Shown here: one piece after another, positions 2,214 through 31,423 of the stretch
How the letters are laid out: every line of letters starts with the position of its first letter
Numbering within the stretch: the stretch's first letter is position 1
NCBI RefSeq assembly: GCF_046054195.1
Contig: NZ_JBEQCS010000008.1
Location: 14,090 to 78,089 of the forward strand
Source: Celerinatantimonas sp. MCCC 1A17872
GTDB lineage: Bacteria; Pseudomonadota; Gammaproteobacteria; Enterobacterales; Celerinatantimonadaceae
Length of the DNA stretch: 64,000 nt
Reading direction: 5' to 3'
The notes under the pieces: generated by a model
The model's input: the letters and a program-made list of their open reading frames with translations, nothing else
What the model was told of the DNA's origin: nothing
Databases searched by the model: none
Program-made: the position numbers and the translations under genes

Positions 2214-2312
2214 GTGTTTGTGAGGGCGAGGAATGAAGTTGGTTAACGATTTAATGAAGATGGTTATTTTAATTAAGTTGGTTAATCGATCATTCTAGTA
2301 CTCTTTGATGAA

Positions 2313-2337
2313 GGCGAGCCGAGAGGTTCGCCTTTTT
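2313..2337 (+). terminator. Rho-independent terminator of gcvP
   Basis: GC-rich hairpin GGCGAGCC-GAGA-GGTTCGCC followed by a TTTTT run, ~100 nt after the gcvP stop codon. Confidence 0.6.
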
Positions 2338-2553
2338 ACTAAGTTGCCTTGCCTAAATTGTTCATGCCCATCAACGTGTCAGCTTGATCTTAGCTGGCAC
2401 GAAAATGCTCCAAAACGAGTTAACTCGTTGTCTGAGGCGCAGTCAAAAACAGACGTTCTAGTCTAGAAATTTTCGTCCTAACTTCGTGCGCGTTTTCACA
2501 TTCCAATATGAATAAATGTTCTTAAAATCATGTGATTATAAAATCTATGGGTT

Positions 2554-2702
2554 AGATAATAGGTGGAAAAACGCGCATACGCGTTTTTCCAGATGGTATA
2601 TTTAATAGAATGCTGATAAGTTCTTTTTATACAGATAGTTAACTGTGCGCGTTTTTACTGGCCAAACAAGATAAATGCGCATGCGCACTAATAAAATGTT
2701 AT
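2554..2702 (+). repeat. ~150-bp repeat, copy A. It contains two palindromes (AAAACGCGCATACGCGTTTT and AAATGCGCATGCGCACT) and ends in GTTATG.
   Basis: ~93% identical to 12870-13019. Both copies end 16-18 nt upstream of a cassette ORF start. Confidence 0.8.
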
Positions 2703-2718
2703 GCGTACTAGGAAATAA

Positions 2719-3048
2719 ATGGAATTACCTTCATACGAAAAAGATCATTATGAATTAGACAACGGAGAAGAAATTCACCGTGAATATCCTGATTCATTTT
2801 GGATCCCTGAGGCGGCCAAAAGAGAATCTCTAAAGCCTGGTGATATTGTTAAGCTTATTTTTCGCTTGGAAGAAACTAAAGGCTCGGATGAAATATCGGT
2901 TGAGCGCATGTGGGTGGAAGTAACAGAGGTAACCCCTCCTTTTTATAAAGGTACTTTAGACAATGACCCGATAGACAGTGATTGTGTAGTCTGCGGGCAG
3001 TCAGTTACTCTCAATCCATGCCATGTAATTGCAATTTATGAAGAATGA
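2719..3048 (+). CDS. Cassette-borne hypothetical protein, tentatively DUF2314-like
   Basis: 109-aa ORF followed directly by an attC site. The ERMWVEVTEV motif is reminiscent of DUF2314. Confidence 0.5.
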   Translation: MELPSYEKDHYELDNGEEIHREYPDSFWIPEAAKRESLKPGDIVKLIFRLEETKGSDEISVERMWVEVTEVTPPFYKGTLDNDPIDSDCVVCGQSVTLNPCHVIAIYEE

Positions 3049-3053
3049 AACAC

Positions 3054-3125
3054 ATAACAAGGCAAGGCAGCATCACACCTTTGGTGTTGGACTCGCTAAA
3101 GCTCGCCGCTGCTTGCGGCGTTATG
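3054..3125 (+). other. attC recombination site (integron cassette boundary)
   Basis: Starts with ATAACAA just after the stop codon and ends GGCGTTATGT. Carries internal imperfect inverted repeats. Confidence 0.55.
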
Positions 3126-3139
3126 TCGCAAGGTGATTT

Positions 3140-3409
3140 ATGGAATGGGCTCTTATCGAGGCTGAATTGATGGCAGCATTCGAATTACTGCCGAGCAATA
3201 CAGTAGAGTCTGATAACGGCTACAGAAAAGATGATTTCTTAGACCATATCAATGCAAATGAACTGCTGTTAGCTATGGAAGAGCTAGATGGGGTAATCGA
3301 AGATAATCCAAGCCCTTCTAAGGAGTTTTGGCATCACTTAATTAGTGCCTCAAAGCTGATGGGCAATATTCATCTAATCAAATATGAGTCCGTATTAAAT
3401 GCAACATAA
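3140..3409 (+). CDS. Cassette-borne hypothetical protein (89 aa)
   Basis: ORF bracketed by attC sites. No recognisable motif. Confidence 0.45.
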   Translation: MEWALIEAELMAAFELLPSNTVESDNGYRKDDFLDHINANELLLAMEELDGVIEDNPSPSKEFWHHLISASKLMGNIHLIKYESVLNAT

Positions 3410-3490
3410 CAAGCCGCTCAAATTCGTTCCGGCCACAAAAAGCGTGGCCTCCACCGGACTCGCCAACGCTCGCTGTTTAGCGGGGCATTA
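3406..3490 (+). other. attC site with a degenerate right end
   Basis: ATAACAA overlaps the stop codon. The right end GTTTAGCGGGGCATTAG is imperfect. Confidence 0.4.
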
Positions 3491-3498
3491 GAGGTCTT

Positions 3499-3789
3499 AT
3501 GGAGATCGTAGAATTTCATGGAGTAAGGTGTCTTGAAAAGCCGCTTGAGGATTGGCAGAAATTTGTATGCAAGCATCTTAAAGATATGGTTACCGACCCA
3601 GAGTGTGGAAAGCCATCGTCAGTAAATCGAGTGCTCCAAGATGGCAGTAGAACATCAGAGATTTTCTTAATAGTTAATGGTCCATTGCCAGACATTGAGT
3701 CGGGTACAAATTCACCTCTCATTAAAAAATCTGACCATATTGAGTGTGGCCAATGTTGGATTAACGTGTATGCATCAAAAAACCTCTAA
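3499..3789 (+). CDS. Cassette-borne hypothetical protein (96 aa)
   Basis: ORF between attC sites. Confidence 0.45.
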   Translation: MEIVEFHGVRCLEKPLEDWQKFVCKHLKDMVTDPECGKPSSVNRVLQDGSRTSEIFLIVNGPLPDIESGTNSPLIKKSDHIECGQCWINVYASKNL

Positions 3790-3870
3790 CAAAGCGTTGA
3801 AATCAGTCGCTGCGCTCCTTGGAACCTCCAAAAGCTACGCTTTTCCCGGCCCTTTAACACGGCGTTATAT
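3787..3870 (+). other. attC site
   Basis: TAACAAAGCG on the left and GGCGTTATAT on the right. Confidence 0.6.
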
Positions 3871-3882
3871 GTTGGAGAGTTA

Positions 3883-4287
3883 ATGCCACAATTAGAACAA
3901 ATATTGACGGAATGGCTTTCTAATAAATTAAGTGATTCAGAATATTATAAGTATCTTATTGACCATTGTAGTGAATGTGAAAGTAGATTCACACGAGGCA
4001 AGTTTTTACAGCTTAAACATTTTAATCGCGTAGTAGCTCGTGAAATTTTAGATGAGCTCGCACCTTGTGATTTTTGTAACAAGGAATTTACGATAGAGAA
4101 GCTTTTTTCATTACGCGATAATCCGAATTTTGAACTAATTAACAAACCAGATTTTGTTAATATTAGTTTTCCGTATTCAGGTGTAATGGGTCCAGAGCAA
4201 TATGCTCGATGTAAAAAATGTGGAAGTATACTTTTGTTTATCGCACCAGAACGGGAATTTAAAGGTTGGTGGGGTAAGGTGGGGTAA
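3883..4287 (+). CDS. Cassette-borne Cys-rich hypothetical protein (134 aa)
   Basis: ORF with CxxC…CxxC spacing (CSECE…CDFCN…CKKCG) followed by an attC site. Confidence 0.5.
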   Translation: MPQLEQILTEWLSNKLSDSEYYKYLIDHCSECESRFTRGKFLQLKHFNRVVAREILDELAPCDFCNKEFTIEKLFSLRDNPNFELINKPDFVNISFPYSGVMGPEQYARCKKCGSILLFIAPEREFKGWWGKVG

Positions 4288-4385
4288 AACATATAATAAA
4301 TCGCTGCAATTGACAAAATAACTGTCACGAATTTTGGTTCCCAAAATGTAGCGCCAGCTATTTTGCAACTGAGCTCAGCGTTAGG
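4285..4385 (+). other. attC site, family B (shared core …AATAACTGTCACGAATTTTGGTTCCCAAAATGTAGCGCCA…GCTCAGCGTTAG)
   Basis: Near-identical copies at 13452-13545 and 14102-14195. Ends GCGTTAGGG. Confidence 0.65.
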
Positions 4386-4393
4386 GCTCAGAT

Positions 4394-4723
4394 ATGAATC
4401 GAGCATTTGGGAAAGTATTCAAAAGCGAAAATGGCATTGGGTACGGCGTAATCAGAAAAACCAAGGAGCCATTTCCTGAAGTTTTATCGGCTTCGGAGGT
4501 CCTGGCCGAAGACGATTGTGGTAACTATTTGGTTTTACTAAATGATGCCGTTTGCTTCTGGGATCACGAAACAAATGAGATCGAGGTTCTTTCTAATTCA
4601 ATAGATGAATTCGTTTCAAGGTGCTCGACTCCAGAAGAAGTAGAACTAGAGCCAGGCCAAGTTGAATCGGCTTGGATAGACCCCAAGTTTGCGAAGAAAT
4701 TCGGCATCACGAGCAAGTCCTAA
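4394..4723 (+). CDS. Cassette protein, possibly SMI1/KNR4 (SUKH) immunity-like
   Basis: 109 aa with GNYLVLL…VCFWDHETNE, which resembles the SUKH C-terminal motif. Confidence 0.45.
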   Translation: MNRAFGKVFKSENGIGYGVIRKTKEPFPEVLSASEVLAEDDCGNYLVLLNDAVCFWDHETNEIEVLSNSIDEFVSRCSTPEEVELEPGQVESAWIDPKFAKKFGITSKS

Positions 4724-4755
4724 CAAACGCATTAAAGTGGGCGGAGCGTTATAAC
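4721..4755 (+). other. Very short (35 bp) attC-like site
   Basis: TAACAAACGC…GCGTTATAAC with only ~15 bp between the core motifs. Confidence 0.35.
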
Positions 4756-4760
4756 CCAAA

Positions 4761-5276
4761 ATGATCATTGAGCAAGCGCTAGAATTCCTAGGCAAACATC
4801 AGCCTTTGCCATCGGATGAAGAAATATCAGAAGCTGAGATTGATACTTTCAACGAAGTAAGAAAGTTCCTGATTTCAAACCCTGACGAACGTGCAATTCC
4901 TCTTGTACTAAATGCGTTTGGCGATGAAGACGGATTTGGCGTCTACCAGGTTTGTGATGACATATTTAGACCATTTAAACCTGAGGTTGTTTTACCTCAC
5001 TTAAAAAATGAATTGGCAAGTAAACATTACGGGGTTCGCTATTGGGCTGCCCAGTGGGCAATGGAAATCAATTCACTTGATATAGTTCCTGAAATAAACG
5101 CTATGCTAGCAACCCCGGAAGATACGGAGGCTCACTATTATTGTGTTGCCGCGCTCATGGATATATGGCAAAAGACAAAAAATCCGTTTGTGTCTAAGTC
5201 AATAATTGAATTAGGCGGTAAATCCAAGAATACAGATATCTCAGAGCTAATCGATGAACACAAAACACAAAAATAA
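4761..5276 (+). CDS. Cassette-borne hypothetical protein (171 aa)
   Basis: ORF followed by an attC site. Helical-repeat-like sequence. Confidence 0.5.
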   Translation: MIIEQALEFLGKHQPLPSDEEISEAEIDTFNEVRKFLISNPDERAIPLVLNAFGDEDGFGVYQVCDDIFRPFKPEVVLPHLKNELASKHYGVRYWAAQWAMEINSLDIVPEINAMLATPEDTEAHYYCVAALMDIWQKTKNPFVSKSIIELGGKSKNTDISELIDEHKTQK

Positions 5277-5280
5277 GGTT

Positions 5281-5334
5281 ATAACAAAGCAATGTTGCGG
5301 ACTCGCTCTGCTCGCGCGCAAATTGTGGCGTTAG
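5281..5334 (+). other. attC site
   Basis: ATAACAAAGC…GGCGTTAGTTG. Confidence 0.55.
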
Positions 5335-5739
5335 TTGTTAAAAAGTCCGGAGATATTAATGACGTCAAAAGAGGTAGTGATTTCATTTTGGGAAGCGATG
5401 AAATCCAATGATTTTACCAACGCTTGTGAATGGCTTTCCGAAGATTTTGAAGGTTTTTGGCCTCAGAGTTCCGAACTTATTGTTGGACGTAAAAATTTTA
5501 CAGCAATAAACAGTTATTATCCTGCAAACGGAAAATGGTTATTTGACATCAATTCTATAGTTTGTGAGGACAAAACGGTTGTAACGGATATATCAATCAC
5601 TGATGGTGAATTCAAAGCACGAGCAATAACATTTCACACAGTCGAAAATGATTTAATTAAGAAGCAAGTAGAATTTTGGCCAGAAGATTATCCAGCACCG
5701 GAGTGGCGCTCGAAATGGGTCAAAAGGGTAGAAGTGTGA
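5335..5739 (+). CDS. SnoaL/NTF2-like cassette protein
   Basis: The N-terminal pattern SKEVVISFWEAMKSNDF… is typical of the SnoaL_2/NTF2 fold. The ATG at 5359 is an alternative start. Confidence 0.5.
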   Translation: MLKSPEILMTSKEVVISFWEAMKSNDFTNACEWLSEDFEGFWPQSSELIVGRKNFTAINSYYPANGKWLFDINSIVCEDKTVVTDISITDGEFKARAITFHTVENDLIKKQVEFWPEDYPAPEWRSKWVKRVEV

Positions 5740-5747
5740 AATACAAC

Positions 5748-5850
5748 TAACAAAGCAAAACAATGGACGCTTAACGCTTCGGTGCTTGTTGTTTTAGGTT
5801 TTAAATGTGCTGTAACATTGGTGAAAGCGCCACTGTTTGCGGCGTTAAGT
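5748..5850 (+). other. attC site
   Basis: TAACAAAGC…GCGGCGTTAAGT. Confidence 0.55.
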
Positions 5851-5869
5851 TTTTCTTGAGTTGAAGTAG

Positions 5870-6229
5870 ATGAGCGAGCCATTTGATAGATCAATTCCTG
5901 GATACACAGAGCTGACGGATTGGCCTAAGCCACCGCTATATCCTGAAAAGATAACCGAAATATGTCTTTATCGAAATGGAGCGGTTGTTGTCGTAATACA
6001 TGGAGGTTTGAGCTTCAATTTTGAGCCAAGTCTTGGGCGCCTCTGTTATGGTGAGAGTCATAGAGACGAAAATGCTGCCTTTATTAAAAAGGACTCACCA
6101 TTCGAAGCGCAGCTATATGCTTATCTGGAAGCTGCGAGAAAGAAATTGAGTCATGAAGAGTTTTCTGTATCAGATATCAAGCTTTTCAATAATTGTTTTA
6201 GCAAAGCCAAGGTTTATTCTAGTGTGTAA
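5870..6229 (+). CDS. Cassette-borne hypothetical protein (119 aa)
   Basis: ORF between attC sites. Confidence 0.45.
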   Translation: MSEPFDRSIPGYTELTDWPKPPLYPEKITEICLYRNGAVVVVIHGGLSFNFEPSLGRLCYGESHRDENAAFIKKDSPFEAQLYAYLEAARKKLSHEEFSVSDIKLFNNCFSKAKVYSSV

Positions 6230-6328
6230 AAACAGAACAATACAATCAATACCCGCCAGCAAGTTGGCTCGGATCTCTGTTCCGGCGCGTCGCTCCTTCA
6301 CTACGGCCCGTTATTGTAGGCGTTAGCA
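6230..6328 (+). other. attC site
   Basis: Ends GTAGGCGTTAGCA. Confidence 0.45.
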
Positions 6329-6343
6329 GAATAGAAGGAATAT

Positions 6344-6775
6344 TTGATGTCAGTGGAAGAAGTGGTTAGAGGTTTTATTGAACAAGTAAGGTCTGGGAAA
6401 AATCCAGACTTAGTCAGCAAGTATCTAGCCCCAGTAGTTGTAGCGCATCAGATTGTTTCTGGAGTCTCAGAAGCAATTGAAAGAACACCTGAAAACTATC
6501 GTGAACATGTAGAAGAATTTTTAGAAGTTTACGGTCATTTCGAGCTCTCAATCGAAGAGTTTTTGGTTCAAGGTCAAAAGGTTTATGTGCGTTGGCGTCA
6601 AGACGGTCACCATGAAGGTGTAATTTATGGTTACGAGCCGACAGGTCTAGAACTTTCTACAGTAGGAAGCGCTGTGTACCGAGTTAGTGAAAATCAAATA
6701 GTGGAATATTGGATTCAACAAGAGAATCAAGGTTTACGAGAGCAGTTGGAAACCAACCTTAAGAAATTCAGCTAA
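6344..6775 (+). CDS. SnoaL-like ester-cyclase family protein
   Basis: EEVVRGFIEQV…YLAPVVVAHQ matches the ester cyclase/SnoaL N-terminal signature. Confidence 0.6.
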   Translation: MMSVEEVVRGFIEQVRSGKNPDLVSKYLAPVVVAHQIVSGVSEAIERTPENYREHVEEFLEVYGHFELSIEEFLVQGQKVYVRWRQDGHHEGVIYGYEPTGLELSTVGSAVYRVSENQIVEYWIQQENQGLREQLETNLKKFS

Positions 6776-6840
6776 CAAACGAGTATGTGTAGAGGCTTTT
6801 GTGTAGCGTCGTTACTCGCACAGTTAATTAGGTGTTAGCT
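6773..6840 (+). other. attC site
   Basis: TAACAAACG…GGTGTTAGCT. The internal TGTGTAGCGTCGTTACTCGCACAGTTAAT stretch recurs at 7799-7830. Confidence 0.55.
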
Positions 6841-6856
6841 TGCTCCCTTTGTGTAA

Positions 6857-7351
6857 TTAGCTCAAGCTGGCCCGAACATCTGCAATCGTGATAAATAACT
6901 TGTTTTCAGCATGTTGAAATGCAGTGAAGCCGTATTTCTCGTAAAAGTGCAATGCGCCATCTTTTGCGTCAACGATAACGACTGGAAAGGCTACAGTGTC
7001 ACTAGCTGTTAATAATTTACGAAGGGCATCAATGAGTAACCATTCGCCGAATCCTTGGCCTTTGTAGCGTTCATCAACGGCTAAACGGGCAATAAGTCCG
7101 CCAGACGTTGATGAATGGTGTTTTTTTTGAAGTTTGCTCGGTAAAGCTTTTAGATCAATTGGTGTCATGGTTAAGGTATAAAACCCAATAACTTTCGAGT
7201 TATCGGTTTCATCTTCCAGAACAAAGGTTCTGGTATTATCTTTTTTAGCTTGTTGACTGGCCATAACTTTCAGATAGTTATTGAGCGCGTTGATACCACA
7301 GTTGAATCGGTTTCTATCATGTTTAGCCTTGTCGAGAAGTACCGTATTCAT
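6857..7351 (-). CDS. GNAT-family acetyltransferase toxin (TacT/KacT-like), in an inverted cassette
   Basis: 164 aa with a GNAT fold (…FYEKYGFTAF…). Overlaps the upstream DUF1778 antitoxin gene by 4 bp. Confidence 0.7.
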   Translation of the reverse strand: MNTVLLDKAKHDRNRFNCGINALNNYLKVMASQQAKKDNTRTFVLEDETDNSKVIGFYTLTMTPIDLKALPSKLQKKHHSSTSGGLIARLAVDERYKGQGFGEWLLIDALRKLLTASDTVAFPVVIVDAKDGALHFYEKYGFTAFQHAENKLFITIADVRASLS

Positions 7352-7623
7352 TGTTGAGTTTTTCCTTCGTAGCGCTGGGCTGCCACTTTCAGTTTTGTAT
7401 TCGCTTTTGCTGGTTGGTCGAGAGCATCCATCAGTAACATAGCGTCAATTCTGCTTAGTTTGAGGGTTTCTTCACGCTCGATAACCTGTTTAGCTTTTTC
7501 AATGGCAGCGTTCAGTACAAAAGAATTAATGCTAGACATACCGGTAATGGCAGCGGCTGTAGTCAGTAAATCTTGTGTATCAACATCTACTCTGGCAGTG
7601 ATACGGGGTAATGTAGAGGCCAT
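7348..7623 (-). CDS. DUF1778 (RHH) antitoxin partnered with the GNAT toxin
   Basis: 91 aa preceding the GNAT gene. This is the typical type II TA arrangement seen in superintegron cassettes. Confidence 0.7.
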   Translation of the reverse strand: MASTLPRITARVDVDTQDLLTTAAAITGMSSINSFVLNAAIEKAKQVIEREETLKLSRIDAMLLMDALDQPAKANTKLKVAAQRYEGKTQQ

Positions 7624-7734
7624 AGTTTTCTCCTTTGTGTCAAAGTGTCACACAAAACATTATGGTATTAAAGTCAAAATTAATCAATAAAAGTGTCACT
7701 TTGGCACATAAATAACAAGTTGTTAAACCGTAAT

Positions 7735-7839
7735 TTGTAACGCGCGGTATTCTTGGTTTGCAGGTAATTTGGTTTTTATAAAGCTGTGTAGCAGCTTCTG
7801 TGTAGCGTCGTTACTCGCACAGTTAATTTGGCGTTATGC
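7735..7839 (+). other. attC site closing the inverted TA cassette
   Basis: Ends TTGGCGTTATGC and shares internal sequence with attC 6773-6840. Confidence 0.45.
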
Positions 7840-8541
7840 ATAAAAAAGAATAACCAAAATGATTAATGGTATTTTGAAAATTTCAGAAAGCATTTATATC
7901 TTGCTTAAATTCAGAACGAGAATTAAAACTGCCTAGTGATATTTTAAAATAATTAATTATTTATAATTAGTACTTTGCTTACGTAAATAAATTCGTTGCT
8001 CTCACTTGAGCATTATGGGCAATCAATCAGTGTATTAGCTGATTGTTTTTTATTGATAACAACAATATTAGCAGGATATTTAGCCTGTTACTTCATGCCG
8101 TGAAACTATAATGATTCGCCATTTCTCTAATCTAATTCTGAGGGTTAACTCAATATTTATTTCGTGTTGGAAGCATCTAATAGTGGCTATGACAGTAAGC
8201 ATGAAATACCTGTTGCCACAGCTTTGAAATGAAACTCTAAGCTATACGTAACCTGCCTGTTCGAAGAGGAAAAAAGTGGACAATCAGGAGTTTTAATTAG
8301 ATTTATATTGATAGATTTGTCTGTATTTAAAGGTTGGCTAAAAAAGAATATAAGTAAAAAACTGCTGAAGATGTTTTTTTCTAGGAATTAGTTATGAACT
8401 GGGCAAATAAAGTCTGAATTAAAATTATAAAAGAAAGTATTTCATATAATTGTCTGCATCTGTATATTACACTAATTAGTAGCCAGTCTTGTCATTGTAA
8501 TATATTATCGAGCTGATTTTTCGTAATGGACTATAACTGAG

Positions 8542-9789
8542 TTGTATATGGATGACGTTTTATCTTCTTGCCTAAATGCTGAAGGAATGTCAGCACAATG
8601 CGTTTATGACAAAATTAATCAAGAGCTAGAAACCGATGGTGATCGGTATAAGGATCTTGGTAGTTTTACTGCTGTACAAATGAATCCTCAAGCCCGTCAG
8701 TTGGTGATGGATAATATGGGTATCAACCTCATCAACCAAAACGAGTTTCCGCAAACAACTAAAATTCACCAGATCTTAGTAACCACATTAGCCACGCTAC
8801 TGCATGCGCCAGATCAACAGCAAGTGACGGGATGTTCGACATCTGGATCGTCTGAAGCTTGTGCGATTGCCATGGTGGCCCATAAAGGTCGCTGGAAAGA
8901 ACGTGCGGCATTGACGGATAGACCCAATATCGTTTTAGGTTCGAATGCGCATTTATGCTGGCGAAAATTTGCCACTTATTTCGATATTGAAGTTCGGGAA
9001 GTGGTATTTAAAGATTTTAATCAGTATCCACTCGAAGATATGTTATCCCTGGTGGACCAAAACACTATCTGTGTTGTTGCCGTTATGGGATCAACCTATA
9101 CAGGGTTCTGTGAACCGATCAAGGCTATTAATGATGGACTAACTGAGCTTAATCAGCGTCATGGCTGGAATGTTGGTATTCATGTCGATGCTGCTACTGG
9201 CGGCTTTATCCGTCCGTTTATAGATGACTCATCTTTACCTGACTGGGATTTTACTTTACCGCTGGTCCAGTCTATTAATTTGTCCGGGCATAAATATGGT
9301 TTGGTTTATCCCGGTATAGGCTGGTTAATATTGCGGGACGAGACCATTTTGCCCGACAAAATGAATATGACCGCCAGTTATTTAACTGGGGAGACTCAGT
9401 CTTTTGCTATTACTTTTTCTCGTTCATCCGCTTTAGTTATTGCCCAATATTTTAATTTTCTCTTTTATGGCATCGCAGGTTATAAGGCTGTGATAGCAAA
9501 TTGTCTAAAACATGCCAAACAACTAACGTCAGTGTTGAATAAATTAGATGGCATTAAAGTGATTAGCGAACAGACATTGCCAATAGTTGCTTTTTTACTA
9601 GAAGATGATACCGGTGAGTTGTCAGAGACATTTACCGCGCAACTTAAACAAAAAGGTTGGTTGATTCCCTGCTATATGATGCCAAGCAATATTAAACAGA
9701 AAGTAATGCGAATTGTCATTCGGGAAGATATGACAAATGCCCGTCTGGACGAATTAATTCAGGATATTTGTGAGGTACATGCCAGATGA
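8542..9789 (+). CDS. Group II PLP-dependent decarboxylase, glutamate decarboxylase (GadB)-like
   Basis: The NLSGHKYGLVYPGIGWLILRD block parallels GadB [21 protein letters not shown], and the C-terminal half aligns colinearly with GadB. Preceded by 700 bp of AT-rich non-coding DNA. Confidence 0.75.
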   Translation: MYMDDVLSSCLNAEGMSAQCVYDKINQELETDGDRYKDLGSFTAVQMNPQARQLVMDNMGINLINQNEFPQTTKIHQILVTTLATLLHAPDQQQVTGCSTSGSSEACAIAMVAHKGRWKERAALTDRPNIVLGSNAHLCWRKFATYFDIEVREVVFKDFNQYPLEDMLSLVDQNTICVVAVMGSTYTGFCEPIKAINDGLTELNQRHGWNVGIHVDAATGGFIRPFIDDSSLPDWDFTLPLVQSINLSGHKYGLVYPGIGWLILRDETILPDKMNMTASYLTGETQSFAITFSRSSALVIAQYFNFLFYGIAGYKAVIANCLKHAKQLTSVLNKLDGIKVISEQTLPIVAFLLEDDTGELSETFTAQLKQKGWLIPCYMMPSNIKQKVMRIVIREDMTNARLDELIQDICEVHAR

Positions 9790-9838
9790 ATGTTGTTTTG
9801 TGTTTGACCAAAGGATTGGGAATTGGGGCATATTGGAT

Positions 9839-11224
9839 ATGAAGAGTAACAAAAAAACAAATATGGGAATATTTCGTCCCCACCCAAAAATCGAAGCTAT
9901 ATTGTTGTCTTGCGTAATTGTATCACTGGTCGGATGTTTGTCTTTTCTTATCTATAGTAAGTCCAGTTCGGTATTAAAAAATGAAATTAAATTAGGTTTA
10001 TTGTCTAATGTTTCAGCTGCGGCAACAACGATTAACGGGGATTTGCACCGAACATTTAATAAAAATACTTCGCGGCAAGATCCTAATTATCTCGCCGTGG
10101 CAAACTCATTAGAGAAAATCAGGGAAGCCTCTCATAATGTTCGTTATATCTATACGAATATTTTAAAAGGGGGCAAGGTCTATTTTGTGGTAAATCCTAG
10201 TCCACAAAATGATAACGATGGCGATGGTGTACCCGATTTAGCTCCCGCGCTGATGGAACAGTATGAGAACCCTGCTCCGGAATTAGTTCAAGCCCTAAAA
10301 GACCATAAAAGTGTAGTGACCAGTCCATATCAGGATAGTTGGGGCCGATTTATCAGTGGTTATGCTCCTTTTTATGATTCTCAGGGGCGTTTTGTTGGCG
10401 TGCTGGGGATGGATTTGCAACTAAATGACTTTGATCAGCGGATGCACCCTATCACACTGATTTTTGAGAAAACCGCTATTATTGTCTTTTTTGTTGGCTT
10501 GATTGTTGGCCTACTGACTTGGTTTTCAAGACGTTATACGGGCTCTATTCTTTTAGATAATCAAAAACTTACCAGTAATCAAACCCACTTTGAACAGTAT
10601 TTACAATCAGAAACGGGGCATTACCGTCAAGTCATAGAGGCAATTGGGCAAAAAGTGAAGTCAATGCCTTTAACAGAGACAACTCAGGTTCAAGATATCG
10701 AGCAATGGATATCAGCCTGGAATAACTATTTTCAATCTAGCCAAAGCAAGATATTCAGTGAGGACAATTTTCATCTGGATAGTATGCTCAACCATATTGC
10801 ACTAGCAACGAGTGATGTCGTTGCGCTTGATATCAATCAAGAACCCTCGGTCCCCAATTATTTTTACGGCAGTTCTGCGCAATATGAGACGCTATTAAGC
10901 GAATTAGTGAAGGCTCTGCATATTCTTCATGTTGACCGGGAAGTGATGCAACTATTTGTCAGACTAGAAAATGAGCTGGTGGAGGAAGTCAGTTTAGCTA
11001 TCTCTGTCTGTGTAGCAAAAGATGGGGTATCGAGCTGTCAGGCACCTGTCTTTACGCCCGATTTTTCTTTTGCTGAGACTTATAGTGTCCAGCAGATCCA
11101 GTTTTTCAGTACTGTTGCCAGGATAGAAGAATTGGGAGCAAGTATTGATTGGATTGATGACAAGACACAACAAGGATATCAGCTGACCTTTTCTGTCAGT
11201 AAATACAGGGAAGTCGAGCAATGA
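9839..11224 (+). CDS. Membrane sensor with a periplasmic Cache-like domain and an uncharacterised cytoplasmic domain
   Basis: Two TM segments flank a domain carrying the dCache-like motif GYAPFYDSQGRFVGVLGMDL. The ~230-aa C-terminal region has no HAMP, MCP, kinase or GGDEF motif. Start is uncertain; the ORF opens at 9770. Confidence 0.6.
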   Translation: MKSNKKTNMGIFRPHPKIEAILLSCVIVSLVGCLSFLIYSKSSSVLKNEIKLGLLSNVSAAATTINGDLHRTFNKNTSRQDPNYLAVANSLEKIREASHNVRYIYTNILKGGKVYFVVNPSPQNDNDGDGVPDLAPALMEQYENPAPELVQALKDHKSVVTSPYQDSWGRFISGYAPFYDSQGRFVGVLGMDLQLNDFDQRMHPITLIFEKTAIIVFFVGLIVGLLTWFSRRYTGSILLDNQKLTSNQTHFEQYLQSETGHYRQVIEAIGQKVKSMPLTETTQVQDIEQWISAWNNYFQSSQSKIFSEDNFHLDSMLNHIALATSDVVALDINQEPSVPNYFYGSSAQYETLLSELVKALHILHVDREVMQLFVRLENELVEEVSLAISVCVAKDGVSSCQAPVFTPDFSFAETYSVQQIQFFSTVARIEELGASIDWIDDKTQQGYQLTFSVSKYREVEQ

Positions 11225-12360
11225 GGAAGATAGCCCCTTTTATTTTGGTACTAGCCGCATTTGGGATACAACTTTCTTCGGGGATCAACTACATCACTTT
11301 CCCGTTGATTCTGCAATCGCAAGGGGTGAACAATTCCATGATTGGTTTGATTATGTCCTGTGACATTTTCGCCCTGATCGTGTTTTCACAGCGAATTTCT
11401 GTGGTTGTAAAAAAGTTGGGAGTACTGAATTCCATCATTATTTGTTCGGTTGTTCGAAGTGTGGTGGTCTATTTCTTATCTGCAAATCATATGGTTATCG
11501 GCTGGGTTTTAGGAATGTTTGCTTATGGCCTGATGACCAATGCATTATTGGTGATAGTGCAAACCTGGCTAAATCTGATGTCTGCAGGAAAAATCAAAGG
11601 GCTGATCATGGGCCTGTTTTCATCTTGTTTATCTCTGGGCATTGCGATGGCACCTATTGCAATACGGTTTATCGATATGACCAGTCAACAACCATTTTAC
11701 CTGAGTAGTGTGATATCGCTTCTGGTGTTAGTGGTGATGATCTCGGTTATCTCGACACGTCCCAGTTTTCATTCAGACAAAAAGGCTCGGATCGTATTTG
11801 TATTCAAACATTCAAAAATTATCATGTTATCGGCAGTGGTTGGTGGGTTCTGTTTTTTTGGATTACCGTCGTTTTTAACGATTTACGGGATAAAAAATGG
11901 TTTATCACCAGAAAATGCTGCGCTGTTACTGACCATGTTTATGTTGGGTAGTGTCACACTTGGTTTGTTGGTCAGTACATTGTCCGCGTTTATTAATCAT
12001 TATCAGCTTATTTTTGTTTGTGTATGTTTATCTGTTGTATGTGCATCTTTTCTTTCTTTATCAATTTACGCCAATCTGGGTGTGGCTTTGGGATTGCTCT
12101 ATCTGTGGGGCGGTTGTATGGGAGGAATATATGCGCTTGGACTTAATGTGGTGGGTGAGCAGTTTCGCCGTGAAGATCAAATGTCAGCCAACATGACTTA
12201 CACCATGATGGATGCTATCGGTGGTGTGATTGGTTTGTGTATTATTGGCACCAGTATGGATTGGGTGGGTAGTGAAGGGCTTTCTTATACCATTGTTGTG
12301 GCATCCATGCTTTATCTGATTTTTGTTTTCCGCCAACTAGCTCAGCGATTTACTTATTAA
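11221..12360 (+). CDS. MFS transporter
   Basis: 379 aa with ~12 hydrophobic segments. Overlaps the sensor gene by 4 bp. Confidence 0.75.
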   Translation: MRKIAPFILVLAAFGIQLSSGINYITFPLILQSQGVNNSMIGLIMSCDIFALIVFSQRISVVVKKLGVLNSIIICSVVRSVVVYFLSANHMVIGWVLGMFAYGLMTNALLVIVQTWLNLMSAGKIKGLIMGLFSSCLSLGIAMAPIAIRFIDMTSQQPFYLSSVISLLVLVVMISVISTRPSFHSDKKARIVFVFKHSKIIMLSAVVGGFCFFGLPSFLTIYGIKNGLSPENAALLLTMFMLGSVTLGLLVSTLSAFINHYQLIFVCVCLSVVCASFLSLSIYANLGVALGLLYLWGGCMGGIYALGLNVVGEQFRREDQMSANMTYTMMDAIGGVIGLCIIGTSMDWVGSEGLSYTIVVASMLYLIFVFRQLAQRFTY

Positions 12361-12485
12361 GTCTGCAACGGTTAAAGAGCACTGCGTTTCAATATCGGTT
12401 TGTTGCAATTGGTGATAACTGTTTTAATAAAGCTTGAGTTTTTAATTAAAATTGTGACGGATTGAATAAACAAATTTAAATAAAA

Positions 12486-12513
12486 AAGCGAACCACATGG
12501 TTCGCTTTTTTAT
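12486..12513 (+). terminator. Rho-independent terminator of the decarboxylase-sensor-MFS operon
   Basis: AGCGAACC-ACAT-GGTTCGCT followed by TTTTTTAT. Confidence 0.65.
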
Positions 12514-12869
12514 TTCGCTTGTCTCAATTTTATTTTTTGGCAAAAAAGTTAACTATTGTATAACATCTTTCGTTTGCATTGTTTCACAGTGATATTTATG
12601 GTGAAAGTGAATGAATACCTTAATCCAATATAGGTAGGTTTTTTCTGTTCTAATGCTGTAACCACGCATACGCATTTCTTCCTGAAGACCTTTCAGAAAT
12701 GGGCTTTTTAGACTCATAATAACTCCTTACCTCATGATGCTGTATATATGCACAGTGTTATTTGAGATTCTCGGATATCAAGGGAAACAGTGAAAAATTT
12801 TTGCGCGTTTATACATGAACAAATTCATATTATTTATGTTTATTAACAAGTTATGTGTTTTCGATTTGA

Positions 12870-13019
12870 GATAATAGGTTCGGAAAACGCGCATGCGCGT
12901 TTTCCCAGATAGTATATTTAATAGAATGCTGATAAGTTCTTTTTATACAGATAGTTAACTGTGCGCGTTTTTACTGGTCCAACAAGATAAATGCGCATGC
13001 ACACTAATAAAATGTTATG
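12870..13019 (+). repeat. ~150-bp palindrome-bearing repeat, copy B
   Basis: See copy A at 2554-2702. Ends GTTATG 16 nt before the GTG start of the next ORF. Confidence 0.8.
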
Positions 13020-13035
13020 TTTCAGGAGAGTTTAA

Positions 13036-13455
13036 GTGACTCAACAAAAACCAGAAGATTTTGTGAGTGAATATAAAGATATAGATTTTGGGAAACTGAA
13101 GTTGTATCGGGTCGAAGGCGCAAATATAACTCCGCCTACGCCATCTAAAAATGTAATTTCAACTGCTCTTTACAGAGGTTATATAGCTGAATACAAACTA
13201 ACTAAAGATGGGACACTTATCCTTTTGAGTTATAGTTATCCTACAAGCCGTAAAGAGTATAAAACGGATGCTGTAAATGAGATAGTGCATGGCGATTTTT
13301 CATTGGAGTTTAGAGAATCATTCTTTGGTACAAAAACCATTGTACCATTTCATAATGGCAAAATAGTTATTGATAAAAGCCAGTGGCGCATTATAGAAAA
13401 GTCTGGTTTAAACCCAGTTGAAATGATATTAAATAAATCAGAGAAAAAAACATAA
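13036..13455 (+). CDS. Cassette-borne hypothetical protein (139 aa, GTG start)
   Basis: AGGAGAG RBS 6 nt upstream of the GTG. Followed by a family-B attC. Confidence 0.5.
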   Translation: MTQQKPEDFVSEYKDIDFGKLKLYRVEGANITPPTPSKNVISTALYRGYIAEYKLTKDGTLILLSYSYPTSRKEYKTDAVNEIVHGDFSLEFRESFFGTKTIVPFHNGKIVIDKSQWRIIEKSGLNPVEMILNKSEKKT

Positions 13456-13545
13456 CAAATCGCTTCAATTGATAAAATAACTGTTACGAATTTTGCTTCG
13501 CAAAATATAGTGCCAGCTATTTTGCAACTGAGCTCAGCGTTAGAA
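13452..13545 (+). other. attC site (family B)
   Basis: ATAACAAATCGCTTCAATTGATAAAATAACTGTTACG…GCGTTAGAAG. Confidence 0.65.
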
Positions 13546-13564
13546 GCAATAGATCAAAGTTAAT

Positions 13565-14104
13565 ATGAACTGGCTTGAATTTAAAAAAATATCAGAAAGA
13601 GAATTTAAATATATAGAGCTTGAAGGTGGACTTTTCGGATACCAGATGCAGCCTGGAACAAAGTGGAATAAAGGGTTATCTGATGATCAAATTAGAAAGC
13701 TAGAAGACAAATTTGGCTTTAAATTATCAAATGATTATCGAGATTTTATTAAAGTGATGAATGGAATTGATACTGAGCTTATATCAATTGATCCGTTTGA
13801 ATTAGAAGATGATTCATATTCTCAGCTGTACTATGAATACCCGAAAGATTGCGAACGGATATCAGCGTTACTTGAAGAAATTGATAAATTTAAAGAATGT
13901 ATAGATGAAGTGTTAACTGATGCGGGGTTTAGCGTTAGTGACATCGAGGGATATGTTCCAACTTATGCGCATAGGTCTCTCGTTGTCTTCAAGGACAAGT
14001 CGCTATCACCTGTGATTTCAGTTTGGGGTAGCGATGTCGTTGTGTTGGCGGAAAACTTAGAAGAATATTGGATTAAAGAATTGGGATTAGAATATTGTTT
14101 CTAA
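13565..14104 (+). CDS. SMI1/KNR4 (SUKH-1) family immunity-like protein
   Basis: LSDDQIRKLEDKFGFKLSNDYRDFIKVMNG is the classic SUKH N-terminal motif. Confidence 0.65.
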   Translation: MNWLEFKKISEREFKYIELEGGLFGYQMQPGTKWNKGLSDDQIRKLEDKFGFKLSNDYRDFIKVMNGIDTELISIDPFELEDDSYSQLYYEYPKDCERISALLEEIDKFKECIDEVLTDAGFSVSDIEGYVPTYAHRSLVVFKDKSLSPVISVWGSDVVVLAENLEEYWIKELGLEYCF

Positions 14105-14195
14105 CAAATCGCAGCAATTGACAAAAATACATGTCACGAATTTTGGTTCCCAAAATGTAGCGCCATATATTTTTGCAACGATGCTCAGCGTTATA
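14102..14195 (+). other. attC site (family B)
   Basis: TAACAAATCGCAGCAATTGACAAAAATACATGTCACG…GCGTTATAC. Confidence 0.65.
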
Positions 14196-14210
14196 CTACT
14201 TAGGTAGGCT

Positions 14211-14610
14211 ATGGGATCACAAATAAAAATCTATCACTTATTTGTACATGAAAAATCGGGCAAATATTTTTTGCTTGAAGAGGTCCGTCGTAGTTTCTCG
14301 AACGTAAATGAATCAGATTATGTTCGAGTTTGCGATGAGGTTGAAAATAAAGTTGCAAATTTTGTTTCTACTGAACACCTGATACGAGTTGGAATAATGG
14401 AATATTTGCCATTGGGCGAGTATTATATTCAGCAAAAAATGGAGATATTCTTGATATTTATTATTGCGTTAATTTGCTGGATGATCGGTACATTATTTTA
14501 GGAACAGGAAATAGCGAAAAATTGTTTCTAGAAGAAGCTCTAGAGGAGTATCCAGATGAGGTTGATGCAAAACATATTCACAAGATTTCAGTAGAATATG
14601 TGAAAAAGTG
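14211..14610 (+). pseudogene. Cassette ORF disrupted by a frameshift at an A6 tract (14433-14438)
   Basis: Frame 0 ends in a short hydrophobic tail (IFLIFIIALICWMIGTLF). The +1 frame continues with a protein-like sequence (GDILDIYYCVNLLDDRYIILGTGNSEK…VEYVKK) to a TGA at 14608. One extra A in the run restores a 133-aa ORF. Confidence 0.4.
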
Positions 14611-14618
14611 AGCATTCT

Positions 14619-15083
14619 ATGACTCTTGATCTTGAAAAATTAATTCTTCTCTATGATGAAAATTTCATGGAGCTTAGTGTTAAAGGAGTGTTCAAAGAGT
14701 TCCTGGGTATCCCATTTGGAATAAATTTGAATAGTTGTAAAATTAGTTCATGTAAGTGTTTCACAGATTTTTTGCTTCCAACAATAAAATTCTCTAGATT
14801 TGATGAGTGGTTTGTGGATGAAAAAGCAGAGGAAGTTGAATACATCAAAAAGGCCTTATTATTCAACGCGCCTATATCTCTTGATAAAGACTCGATTCGT
14901 CTAGAAATAGAGAGTGTAAATCGATACTTGGAAGAAAATAAAATAGAACAAATTATCGAAATTGAAGGTTTTAATGAGTCACTTGAATATGGATATAAGT
15001 TCAATTTCAATTGGAACCACTGGTCAATGGTGGGAGTAAGTCAGAACTATTATTTGGCGTATCATTGGTATACAACAGAATAA
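14619..15083 (+). CDS. Cassette-borne hypothetical protein (154 aa). It shares a cassette with the preceding frameshifted ORF.
   Basis: Starts 8 nt after the upstream stop with no intervening attC. Confidence 0.45.
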   Translation: MTLDLEKLILLYDENFMELSVKGVFKEFLGIPFGINLNSCKISSCKCFTDFLLPTIKFSRFDEWFVDEKAEEVEYIKKALLFNAPISLDKDSIRLEIESVNRYLEENKIEQIIEIEGFNESLEYGYKFNFNWNHWSMVGVSQNYYLAYHWYTTE

Positions 15084-15193
15084 AATATACGAGGCCATTA
15101 AAGTGACGGCTTTCCCGTCAGTTGTTCTGTGGCTTTAGCTACATCGATACAAAACAATCAACTCTAAAGCTGCGTGTTATAACGGCGTTAGGG
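15084..15193 (+). other. attC site
   Basis: Ends GCGTGTTATAACGGCGTTAGGGC. Confidence 0.5.
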
Positions 15194-15208
15194 CTACATG
15201 GGTAAGGT

Positions 15209-15886
15209 ATGGATTTAGAAGCAGGTTTTTGGGTTAGAGATTTCGAGGTTGATCAAGTAGATTCGCAAATCATCCCGAAGGTAGGTGAACAGCGCATAGT
15301 TTATATTTCGCTAGACTCTGAACCGGAAAAAGGAAAAAAATATTACGTTTTATGGTTTCCTCCCTATTCAGCAATTAATGGCTGGGATGATAATCCCAAT
15401 GAAATTAAGAGAACGCATGTCGTTGAATGCACATTAACCTACCTTGAAAGCTTCCCATTTACAGATGAACAAATTAATAGTTTCGTTGACAAGTGGATTA
15501 TTGCTAAAGACAAAAGTAAGTATCAAGCAAATATCTTGAGTGTTACTCCATTTTTAGAATTCTGTGAAAATTACGAGGGGCATGATTATTTCTCCTTTCA
15601 GCGATGTGGTTATCCTGATGGGAGCACAAAAATGATATGGGAACTGTCTCGTGAATACCAAAAAGCTAAATTTGGTAGCAACCTTATATACATAACTGGT
15701 TGTGTTCCTGAGCAATTTTTCAGTGCTGTGATTGATGTCAGTGATAGCACAAAGTGTCGCGTTAAGTTTCATGAGCATTATGATCCCGGCATAGAACAAT
15801 GCTTAGTTATTAACTATGAGCTAAAAGGAGATGAACTAAAGTTTTTTAAAGAGGCAATAGAAAATGCTATTGAGCTTAAGCCTTAG
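15209..15886 (+). CDS. Cassette-borne hypothetical protein (225 aa)
   Basis: ORF followed by an attC site. Confidence 0.5.
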   Translation: MDLEAGFWVRDFEVDQVDSQIIPKVGEQRIVYISLDSEPEKGKKYYVLWFPPYSAINGWDDNPNEIKRTHVVECTLTYLESFPFTDEQINSFVDKWIIAKDKSKYQANILSVTPFLEFCENYEGHDYFSFQRCGYPDGSTKMIWELSREYQKAKFGSNLIYITGCVPEQFFSAVIDVSDSTKCRVKFHEHYDPGIEQCLVINYELKGDELKFFKEAIENAIELKP

Positions 15887-15889
15887 AAA

Positions 15890-16012
15890 CATCCCTAATA
15901 AGAGTTTCTCGTAAATACCTACCGCGATGCGGCCGAGGTTTTGTGGTTTCGCAGCGCTCATATTAATACCCAAGTCGCTCGTGCTTGTTCGCTGGTGAGG
16001 CAGGCGTTATAA
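15890..16012 (+). other. Last attC site of the array
   Basis: Ends CAGGCGTTATAAC. No further attC-like ends lie downstream. Confidence 0.5.
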
Positions 16013-16280
16013 CTTAGAAAATAATACGAAACTTCATGATTTAGAATATCCGCAACTAAAAGCAATCGTTCCGAAAATTTAGATATTGCCCTTGAGGCCA
16101 AGACATTAATTATATCGCAGCCTCGAAAGTTTGGTTAGGTGAAGGTGTCACTGTATCTGAAGCTGTCATTATCGAAGGTGCTTTCGAGTTCTGCTGTTGT
16201 ATAATGGTCGTTAAAATGGCTCGCAAGCTGCTTTATGGTTTCGATTAAACTGTTTTAGATAAGCGTTACCGGTCAGGATT

Positions 16281-28021: not shown

Positions 28022-28476
28022 ATTCAATAATGGCCAATTTCCTTGCCCATTATAATGCCAAGCATCTTTTGAAATCTGCGATTTGTTATAGCAGTGTTTA
28101 TATTCTTTAGTGGTTTGGTTATTCAGTGATTTATGAGATCGTTTTTTGGATGTTCTCGCAACCATCTATCTGTGATTTTCCTGACTTTATTCAGATTCCT
28201 GAATAAACAAAATCTAGTATTTCCGTTCGATGTTTCCGATTAAATTGTGTTCAAATCTTTAGTCTTAAGTTATCTCATTAAAAATGATAGACAAATCTAC
28301 AAATAACATATAAGTATGGTAAATACATGTATTCTATTTACATGTAAATGATTTCATTTGACTCATTAATACGATAGCGTGGAAAGGGGATACATCATGC
28401 TCTATGAATAGGTCATTGAGGTAATTGCAGAGGAAGTTCTTCCTCTGTGTAATAGTCTTTTGGCCAGAGCTTTACT

Positions 28477-30875: not shown

Positions 30876-31026
30876 TTCAATCTATCCAAATAGATATATT
30901 TATATCTTTATTTCATCATTTAACTGTTTTTTCTGCAATTAAAAAATAGCCTTAGAAATTAAATTTAAAAAAATAACCAAATAAAAACAAATTGTTAAAA
31001 ATAAATTTTAATTTTTCATCTGCGTT

Positions 31027-31042
31027 TGGCACGTCACTTGTA
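31027..31042 (+). promoter_or_regulatory. Candidate sigma-54 promoter for the SPFH-rtcB operon
   Basis: TGGCAC-N5-TTGTA, with GG at -24 and GT instead of GC at -12. Sits ~150 bp from the rtcR start and is preceded by an A/T-tract-rich region. Confidence 0.5.
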
Positions 31043-31134
31043 ATAGTTAAATTGTTGTAATTGTTCGGAGTGTTTCGAAATAGCACCCTGGTGCGATAGG
31101 CTCTGCCTAAATCGTATGCCAGATTACAGCGTGA

Positions 31135-31187
31135 TTTTAAGTCTCGGTCGGCGAGATGTTTGGGTTCGATTCCCAACTTAAAAACCA
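31135..31187 (+). ncRNA. tRNA-like minihelix element 1: acceptor stem, hairpin, canonical T-arm and ACCA
   Basis: TTTTAAG pairs with CTTAAAA. TCTCG-GTCGG-CGAGA hairpin. T-arm TTGGG-TTCGATT-CCCAA. Ends A-CCA. No D-arm or anticodon arm. Confidence 0.45.
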
Positions 31188-31257: not shown

Positions 31258-31423
31258 ATAGAAAAATCGGTGTGAAAGTCGTTATTACCGCTGGTTGGAT
31301 ATCGCTTTTTAATAGCGGGTTATGGCAAGCAGGATAGCTCCCCATAACACAAGTTAATCAGCCATTTTCAATCAAGTCATTAACATTTCACACCATCCCG
31401 TTTGGGATAATGAGGAAAATAAG

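Follow-up and report, generated by a model that had tools for sequence, protein, structure and literature searches.

Organization of the locus

The window analysed here, a 64-kb stretch of DNA from Celerinatantimonas sp. MCCC 1A17872, carries between gcvP and a gene for a methyl-accepting chemotaxis protein (MCP) a region that is very probably a decayed chromosomal integron of the SonIntIA/IntI2 clade. Fourteen cassettes were distinguished in two arrays, ten at positions 2699-7839 and four at 13015-16012, with approximately 5 kb of non-cassette DNA between them. The intervening stretch, 7840-12880, consists of three large non-cassette genes, a terminator, a remnant of the integrase gene intI, and the second of two attI sites. 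The kind of element is ordinary, but its layout is unusual, each of the two arrays being headed by its own attI.

A previous reading made from the sequence alone (the sequence-only reading) had described one continuous 13.5-kb array beginning at 2554, with about 14 attC-like sites and small plus-strand open reading frames (ORFs). The sites and ORFs were found as described (TAACAA...GCGTTA, at 3052-7839 and 13450-16012), but the array is split in two by the non-cassette DNA, and position 2554 is the start of the attI repeat and not of an attC site. The earlier observation was real but mis-delimited, and the reading was right in kind and wrong in detail.

Integrase gene remnant and attI sites

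The remains of the integron platform are the following:

12484-12717, minus strand: intI pseudogene, 54 codons to an in-frame stop (12553-12717) and weaker similarity to approximately codon 81; catalytic domain absent
12740-12755: LexA box CTGTATATATGCACAG, read from the sequence, 22 nt upstream of the start codon of intI
2486-2704, plus strand: attI copy 1, crossover G2698|TT (GTT = 2698-2700), directly behind gcvP, no intI beside it
12756-13020, plus strand: attI copy 2, crossover G13014|TT, directly continuous with what remains of intI, the arrangement of intact SonIntIA integrons

The translation of the 54-codon ORF begins MSLKSPFLKGLQEEMRMRGYSIRTEKTYLYWIKVFIHFHH. It matched the Pfam family Phage_int_SAM_4 (E 2.7e-15, profile positions 1-53 of 85), and its top NCBIfam match was the integron integrase TIGR02249 (positions 1-54 of 315). 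When the window was searched by tblastn with the 320-aa IntI of plasmid pNi1-3, which was named SonIntIA (PMC9229058), the sole match was at 12717-12484 (amino acids 1-81, 63% identity). Over 54 aa, the identity of the stub to SonIntIA was approximately 81%, as counted from the sequences. The catalytic and IntI-specific regions were found nowhere in the 64-kb window, either by tblastn with full-length IntI or with Pfam and NCBIfam. Because the tblastn match is limited to amino acids 1-81, approximately three quarters of intI, comprising the catalytic and IntI-specific parts, are gone. The sequence-only reading had called the array integrase-less, its intI-proximal part either lost or never present; the pseudogene lies inside the very coordinates given for that array. 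The claim that the window holds no functional integrase stands, since the search with full-length IntI recovered the remnant alone.

By sequence comparison, limited to the N-terminus, the stub appears to belong to the SonIntIA/IntI2 clade. A consensus-like relative of the remnant N-terminus, P0004, had 95% identity to integron integrases annotated on plasmids of Shewanella decolorationis and S. xiamenensis; its identity was 95% to plasmid SonIntIA and 67% to IntI2. Close relatives of the stub N-terminus in the protein collection (P0002-P0029) were all short, 30-83 aa, with differing frameshifts, and came from Pseudoalteromonas, Vibrio fluvialis, Shewanella, and Klebsiella; intact 319-aa versions of this integrase likewise exist. 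Pseudogenization of this intI seems to be common. As established background, intI is under the control of the SOS response; a box equivalent in position to that of the window is present in pNi1-3 (CTGTTATTTTATACAG) and likewise in Tn7.

The two attI sites have the same orientation and are 94-96% identical over approximately 150 nt, including a 136-nt direct repeat, D1 (2568-2703 and 12884-13019, 96%), both copies of which end in GTTATG. Both could be aligned with the stretch between intI and attI in intact SonIntIA integrons (L001, L002, L003, L007, L008), and in every aligned sequence conservation stops at AAAATGTTA|, the G|TT crossover. Copy 2 is co-linear with these integrons from the intI start onward. 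The attI core of the window family is GTTAACTGTGCGCGTTTTTACTGG, and the last 15 nt of attI, ACTAATAAAATGTTA, are identical to the attI2 core of Tn7. Judged by these alignments, both are evidently attI sites of the attI2/SonIntIA type, although attI had been thought missing and was to be sought where gcvP lies.

A second attI and a mosaic copy 1 (see below) could also be produced by a short-read draft assembly. The window was taken from a 194-kb draft contig, and a 671-nt metagenome contig, 100% identical to 12211-12881, breaks exactly at the attI repeat, which suggests that this repeat confuses assemblers. However, the copies differ at approximately 6-9 positions spread across the 150 nt, with a longest identical run of approximately 66 nt, and are therefore distinct; a simple assembly collapse is unlikely for this reason, and each copy has its own unique flanks on both sides. 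We regard an artefact of assembly as highly improbable.

attC sites and cassette boundaries

The following sites, all on the plus strand, were assigned to the two arrays:

3052-3126, plus strand: c1, array 1, fits the fixed register
3404-3493, plus strand: c2, array 1, R' with ATT in place of GTT, fits the register
3784-3870, plus strand: c3, array 1, fits the register
4291-4386, plus strand: c4, array 1, family B, R'' with TAAT in place of TAAC, fits the register
4718-4754, plus strand: c5, array 1, 37 nt, no L box, degenerate
5279-5336, plus strand: c6, array 1, fits the register
5745-5850, plus strand: c7, array 1, fits the register
6232-6328, plus strand: c8, array 1, atypical register requiring a different spacer
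6770-6840, plus strand: c9, array 1, without the 5' arm, last 52 nt common to c10
7710-7839, plus strand: c10, array 1, fits the register
13450-13545, plus strand: c11, array 2, family B, fits the register
14099-14196, plus strand: c12, array 2, family B, fits the register
~15083-15193, plus strand: c13, array 2, degenerate R'', good R' half, poor 5' arm
15893-16012, plus strand: c14, array 2, R'' with TAAT, good R' half, arms poorly paired

Nine of the 14 sites (c1-c4, c6, c7, c10-c12) share one gapless register: R'' of 7 nt, 5 unpaired bases, 3 bp, a 1-nt bulge, 6 bp, and on the other arm 6 bp, 3 bp, 5 unpaired bases, and R' of 7 nt. All nine L-box pairs vary on both sides, and 81.5% of the cells pair. 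The covariation score was 0.451, compared to at most 0.115 when the partner was slid by 1-3 columns, and was reached by none of 500 shuffles. A scorer combining a position matrix with pairing was trained without family B for a held-out test. The held-out family-B sites scored 30.0, 32.4, and 26.4; the maximum in 20 shuffled windows was 27.9 (mean maximum 22.1), and the best score elsewhere in the real 64 kb was 24.4. Trained on the window sites alone, the scorer gave 19 hits in external loci, all on the attI strand; in loci with a detected core, 18 of 18 hits lay downstream of it. One of the 19 hits, on an IncC plasmid, was of the V. cholerae type.

The bulged base is a top-strand G (bottom-strand C) in c1, c3, c4, c6, and c12, and a second bulge six bases on is an A (bottom-strand T) in c4, c7, c11, and c12. 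The bottom-strand bulges thus read T-N6-C in c4 and c12, the combination reported to be best excised by SonIntIA and IntI2 (PMC3053210).

The 5' ends of the cassettes agree with the sites at their 3' ends. In eight of 13 cassettes, the four variable bases after GTT are a perfect complement of the cassette's own R'' (mean match approximately 3.5 of 4), versus a mean of 1.9 and 3.8% perfect matches for non-own pairs. The first cassette behind each attI obeys the rule. Such a match is what circular cassettes leave behind on insertion at G|TT, and the sites are attC sites of integron cassettes. The parts of the locus, the homology of these parts, the attC geometry, and the boundary rule are all shown by these data.

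At least three unrelated attC families occur in the arrays, as the sequence-only reading had stated, and its family B, put at above 85% identity, is 90-92% identical among c4, c11, and c12 and present in both arrays. The intact integron of Celerinatantimonas sp. YJH-8 contains an attC with 94.5% identity to c12, and several window sites carry an internal GGACTCGC motif of the Shewanella type. The arrays therefore mix attC sites of Shewanella type and of host-genus type.

A 52-nt direct repeat (D6, 90%; 6786-6837 and 7785-7836) represents the 3' parts of c9 and c10, which flank an inverted toxin-antitoxin cassette. Site c9 has no matching 5' arm; its R' pairs with its own R''. A lone short attC-like site, TATAACAAATCGCAG...TTGGCATTATAA, was seen on the minus strand at 28050-28091, outside any array; it has 13 nt in common with the 5' arm of family B and was the second-best hit (23.3 bits) of a covariance model built from trimmed sites.

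Three approaches to the sites were abandoned. Unanchored pairwise alignment of the arms mis-registered most sites, a loose pattern scanner was non-discriminating (12 hits compared to 6 in shuffles), and MAFFT on full-length sites left the 3' arms unaligned. Rfam matched no family to the attC sites, returning tRNA alone (gathering threshold for the window, E-value mode for 2200-2760).

Cassette cargo

Among the cassette ORFs, Pfam identified SnoaL at 5335-5739 and 6344-6775, SMI1/KNR4 (SUKH) at 13565-14104 with a good score, and a weak DUF2314 at 2719-3048. The remaining cassette ORFs matched no Pfam family. One cassette is inverted:

6857-7623, minus strand: toxin-antitoxin cassette, GNAT toxin 6857-7351, TacA/DUF1778 antitoxin 7348-7623

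The antitoxin gene lies upstream and overlaps the toxin gene by 4 nt (7348-7351). With Pfam matches to TacA1 (E 9.4e-23) and Acetyltransf_7 (E 5.5e-10), the pair is probably a TacAT-like type II toxin-antitoxin system. The cargo named by the sequence-only reading was thus largely recovered (both SnoaL proteins, the inverted GNAT/DUF1778 pair, and one SUKH protein); a second SUKH candidate, at 4394-4723, fell below the Pfam cut-off.

Two cassette proteins belong to 90%-identity clusters shared with Rheinheimera and Microbulbifer, a recurrence that we count in favor of cargo mobility. Cassette 13 (14211-15083) contains two ORFs (96 and 154 aa) that are not separated by an attC, and could be either one frameshifted gene or a two-gene cassette.

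Non-cassette block between the arrays

The arrays are separated by the following:

7840-12515, plus strand: non-cassette block (AT-rich leader, decarboxylase, PDC protein, transporter, terminator)
7840-8541, plus strand: AT-rich leader, start of the block
8542-9789, plus strand: glutamate decarboxylase (Pfam; TIGR01788, 436 bits, above the cut-off)
9770-11224, plus strand: membrane protein with a PDC sensor domain (Pfam)
11221-12360, plus strand: major facilitator superfamily (MFS) transporter (Pfam)
12478-12515: bidirectional terminator with a perfect 18-bp stem

The decarboxylase module is patchily distributed, with relatives of 95-77% identity in metagenomes and of 75% in the alphaproteobacterium Cohaesibacter. 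We considered it as a conserved neighbor of intI and rejected this, as two relatives lack IntI beside the module: in L018 homology with the window ends 50 nt past the MFS stop codon, and in L020 the module is not followed by IntI. It is for this reason not regarded as a native neighbor of intI. In the metagenomic relative L020 (4241-9170), the decarboxylase and the sensor are separated by one more gene, which encodes a neurotransmitter-gated ion-channel ligand-binding domain.

The position of the block admits a co-integrate origin, in which an older class B array (c1-c14; the class is described in the next section) took up a circular element, SonintIA-attI plus the decarboxylase module, with attI x attC recombination at c10 as its route of entry. 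On this view, 7836-13016 (5.2 kb) would represent a single insert between two G|TT crossovers, and intI would have decayed later. The R' of c10 (G7833|TT) is indeed followed immediately by the block, whose other limit is the crossover of the second attI (G13014|TT), and the module is foreign, patchy, and not joined to intI in relatives. The opening bases of cassette 11, ATGT, complement its own R'' exactly, which would be expected of a cassette that once lay behind an attC or attI crossover. However, the empty state was seen in no comparator genome, the left edge of the block could not be placed to the base, and the class A proximal half of copy 1 is not predicted without an extra gene conversion. 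We consider such an origin rather unlikely.

Heads with attI and without intI in other genomes

Upstream of attI copy 1 lies an additional element:

2344-2480, plus strand: class B left module, remnant of an attC-like palindrome (approximately 2344-2427) and conserved block (2410-2478), no intI

Copy 1 is mosaic, switching type near 2554. Its proximal part (2554-2703) is of the class A (SonIntIA) type, the proximal 150 nt being 94-95% identical to copy 2 and to class A attI sites. The distal part (2469-2553) is of class B and could not be aligned with the intI side of class A loci; together with the block at 2405-2478, it is 86% identical to the intI-less head of S. mangrovi (L010), compared to which copy 1 lacks a piece of approximately 96 nt that holds the LexA-type box. 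No intI remnant was found beside copy 1 by tblastn of the window.

The left module of the window is itself 86% identical to that of S. mangrovi. Its edge is sharp, TGC|CCCAAAACGAG, at the same base in six unrelated contexts. The conserved block of approximately 70 nt, CCAAAACGAGTTAACTCGTTGTCTG.GGCGCAGTCAAA..CAGAC..., lies at 2410-2478 in the window, at 6308-6381 in L010, and near position 3000 in L012, L014, L021, and L022. The left module also occurs without attI on Vibrio plasmids, and in L010, L016, and L021 it is located just downstream of a LysR gene. It gave no Rfam hit and showed no similarity to IntI. We tried the left edge as a transposon end and rejected it, since 2200-16300 contained no inverted repeat to pair with it and the window no further copy.

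The palindrome is shared with plasmids of Photobacterium and Vibrio at approximately 92% identity and flanks blaGMA-1 in pP9014, where it is attC-like and reads AACTCATTT...AAATGAGTT. Window positions 2361-2422 are approximately 92% identical to 2052-2113 of pP9014 (L015), and the class B head starts at the GTTAAC of the palindrome.

An exact scan for the attI core, one genome per species, yielded nine loci. Four of them have intI (L003, L007, L008, L011), and four, L005 and L010 (S. mangrovi) and L004 and L009 (Shewanella sp. AS1), show no similarity to IntI in the fetched flanks; L006 has just a 30%-identical tyrosine recombinase. Beside eight external class B loci, no intI remnants were found in the fetched flanks. 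An attI of this family with no IntI similarity in the fetched flanks precedes cassettes in L004, L005, L009, L010, L012, L013, L016, and L017. The arrangement is present on the Shewanella plasmids pSA70-2 and HD6452, on a family of IncC plasmids from Enterobacter, Citrobacter, and E. coli with fosG as the first cassette, and on a Moellerella plasmid (umuC, ssb, and parB as neighbors) with dfrA1 as the first cassette.

It is tempting, though we suggest it only tentatively and think it doubtful, to see in class B heads a recurrent, laterally spreading satellite platform that uses an integrase of the SonIntIA/IntI2 type in trans, and not random wreckage. Such a head would consist of the left module of approximately 70 nt with its sharp edge, usually a LexA-type box, and then attI. 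If so, the window would hold a satellite array parked beside the dead integron that once served it. If this is confirmed, orphan arrays bearing attI, such as those with dfrA1 and fosG on clinical plasmids, would be a vehicle of resistance overlooked by integrase-based surveys.

The mosaic structure of copy 1 also bears on whether two independent platforms came to lie side by side, the proximal 150 nt of their attI sites being homogenized later by homologous exchange. Class B heads do stand alone, with no IntI in the fetched flanks, in S. mangrovi, Shewanella sp. AS1, S. decolorationis S12, and on plasmids, both classes are represented in S. mangrovi (L010 class B, L011 class A), and the switch near 2554 is what such an exchange could leave. 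However, two unrelated insertions within 10 kb and in the same orientation would be needed, and the presence of family-B attC sites in both arrays fits a shared history. Two platforms of separate origin are somewhat unlikely, in our opinion, but deserve consideration.

Proposed history of the locus

We infer past activity, present inactivity, and the order of events that yielded two attI copies as follows. The locus would descend from a working integron of the SonIntIA type, in which LexA represses intI. After SOS induction, IntI would recombine folded bottom-strand attC sites with attI at G|TT; new cassettes would therefore enter beside attI and be read from the platform promoter. This platform probably survives as the two attI sites in the same orientation. 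Copy 2 (end 13016) retains the LexA box together with intI up to codon 54-81, abutted by the foreign decarboxylase/sensor/MFS module. In copy 1 (end 2700), behind gcvP and without intI, the distal part belongs to an intI-less class B head, which is known as well from Shewanella chromosomes and plasmids and from enterobacterial plasmids. Both sites were presumably used once for genuine attI x attC insertions. With a locus unable to make integrase, the 14 cassettes would therefore be frozen unless an IntI of the clade is supplied in trans, and the decay of several attC sites appears to be under way.

Two other Celerinatantimonas species have an intact IntI, 66-68% identical to SonIntIA, with different attI sequences, and their intI genes adjoin cutC or folD. 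An integron at a locus conserved in the genus was rejected, since intI in these two relatives lies beside cutC/folD and not gcvP. As the IntI of relatives sit at other loci with different attI, the platform looks laterally acquired, as far as these sequence comparisons indicate. One attC family in common with the integrons of the genus itself points to cassette exchange between platforms.

The arrays may instead be a working reservoir, with an intact IntI of the clade, supplied from another part of the genome or from a plasmid, acting in trans on both attI sites and the intact attC sites. The core is intact in both attI sites and does not differ from that of functional relatives, nine attC sites retain full geometry, and half of all clusters of attC sites lacking an integrase (CALINs) are located in genomes with IntI elsewhere (PMC4889954); intact IntI are, in addition, carried by the other Celerinatantimonas species. 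However, those IntI are just 66-68% identical to SonIntIA and have different attI sites, and no IntI from strain MCCC 1A17872 was among the top 120 homologues of SonIntIA, which is weak evidence. The box mutations (ATT in c2, TAAT in c4 and c14) and the truncated c5 and c9 suggest relaxed selection. We find a reservoir in present use unlikely.

Several observations weigh against the interpretation as a decayed integron. The absence of integrase is a result for the 64-kb window, and an intact IntI may be encoded elsewhere in the genome; the similarity of the remnant past codon 62 is marginal. A consensus scan revealed no convincing sigma-70 promoter in either attI region. As to the attC sites, nine show the fixed register with covariation; the other five (c5, c8, c9, c13, c14), degenerate or atypical, lie outside it. 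For the test of covariation, the register was picked by eye, yet it is one register for all nine sites. The attC calls rest on register, covariation, and our own scorer, and not on the covariance model of IntegronFinder. Folding of the bottom strand, which the sequence-only reading had proposed as a check, gave a canonical hairpin at minimum free energy in c1, c4, c6, c7, c11, and c12 only, with mostly weak z-scores; the extrahelical bases were seen in the register. For attC sites rich in AT, folding without constraints tests poorly. Likewise, the covariance model from sites trimmed to 51 nt recovered short sites alone, because long variable loops are penalized.

A decayed integron remains strongly preferred, and the operational label CALIN of IntegronFinder probably applies to it, because the window has no functional integrase gene. 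The sequence-only reading had used this label; operationally it probably holds, but the accompanying view that attI and all of intI were missing does not.

Flanking regions

The region is bounded as previously described:

39-2213, plus strand: 3' part of gcvP (Pfam GDC-P, GcvP2_C), running off the window start; left chromosomal flank
16281-18311, minus strand: MCP gene (Pfam MCPsignal, HAMP); right chromosomal flank

A terminator-like hairpin, read from the sequence, follows 3' of gcvP at approximately 2306-2336. The G+C content is 0.34-0.43 from the end of gcvP (2200) to approximately 31 kb, compared to 0.44-0.49 at 32000-53000; the low-GC stretch reaches well past the cassette arrays. At 29271-33852, the window contains rtcR (minus strand), tRNA-Cys(GCA) (31186-31257), and then a Band-7/SPFH gene and rtcB. 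The tRNA gene is thus placed between the regulator rtcR and the RNA-repair operon.

Comparison with known integrons

Compared with a complete integron, the locus lacks an intact intI; an adjacent attI with a GTTRRRY core was recognized by homology, and cassettes bounded by attC sites are present. It resembles a CALIN in having two or more attC sites, with no intact intI nearby. Loss of the integrase from a complete integron was proposed as one origin of CALINs (PMC4889954). In that study, intI pseudogenes were sought via the C-terminal IntI domain and PF00589 alone and were found near 15 of 279 CALINs, and attI was not searched outside classes 1-3. The window differs in having both an N-terminal intI stub and attI sites. 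A stub of this kind would be missed by a screen based on the C-terminal IntI domain and PF00589, and the 54-aa stub would, judging from the published procedure (PMC4889954), fail the intI criteria of IntegronFinder.

The locus can serve as a concrete example of how a CALIN arises, with intI cut down to an N-terminal stub that is invisible to standard pseudogene screens. Its attI sites and most of its attC sites stay intact and could still serve an integrase supplied in trans. Caution is warranted, as the usual analyses of CALINs overlook attI sites and stubs of the intI N-terminus (PMC4889954).

Vibrionaceae superintegrons, with which the cargo had been compared, are similarly chromosomal, with cargo mostly of no known function, an inverted toxin-antitoxin cassette, and small ORFs. 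In contrast, the window has only 14 cassettes, at least three unrelated attC families, a truncated intI, and a non-Vibrionaceae host. With a Celerinatantimonas host, strain MCCC 1A17872, to which exact matches of the window proteins belong, a platform of the SonIntIA/IntI2 clade, and heterogeneous attC sites, the assignment to a Vibrionaceae superintegron is not retained.

The class 2 integron of Tn7 (intI2*, attI2) shares with the window the IntI clade, the attI core, the GAGATAAT block, and the LexA box, and its integrase is also naturally inactivated. However, intI2 of Tn7 is full length with one internal stop and its platform resides in Tn7, whereas approximately three quarters of the window gene are deleted. 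Beside the arrays, we saw neither an IntI-like gene nor one that Pfam annotates as a recombinase or transposase.

A further close likeness is to SonIntIA integrons of Shewanella (S. oneidensis MR-1 type; S. decolorationis pNi1-3). It extends to the intI N-terminus, the LexA box position, a co-linear intI-attI region with attI 88-95% identical up to G|TT, and the attC geometry, several sites of the window having the internal motif mentioned above. The pNi1-3 integron was classed as In0, with no cassettes (PMC9229058). In pNi1-3 (L001 1-5700, minus strand), we observed canonical attC sites after ORFs beside SonintIA, e.g., GCCTAACAAGTCATTCAAGCGG...CCGCTTAACTCCAGCGTTAGGT. The window differs from these integrons in its intI stub, its second attI without intI, its 5-kb metabolic module, and its host, and the Shewanella platform of the SonIntIA/IntI2 clade is now extended to Celerinatantimonas.

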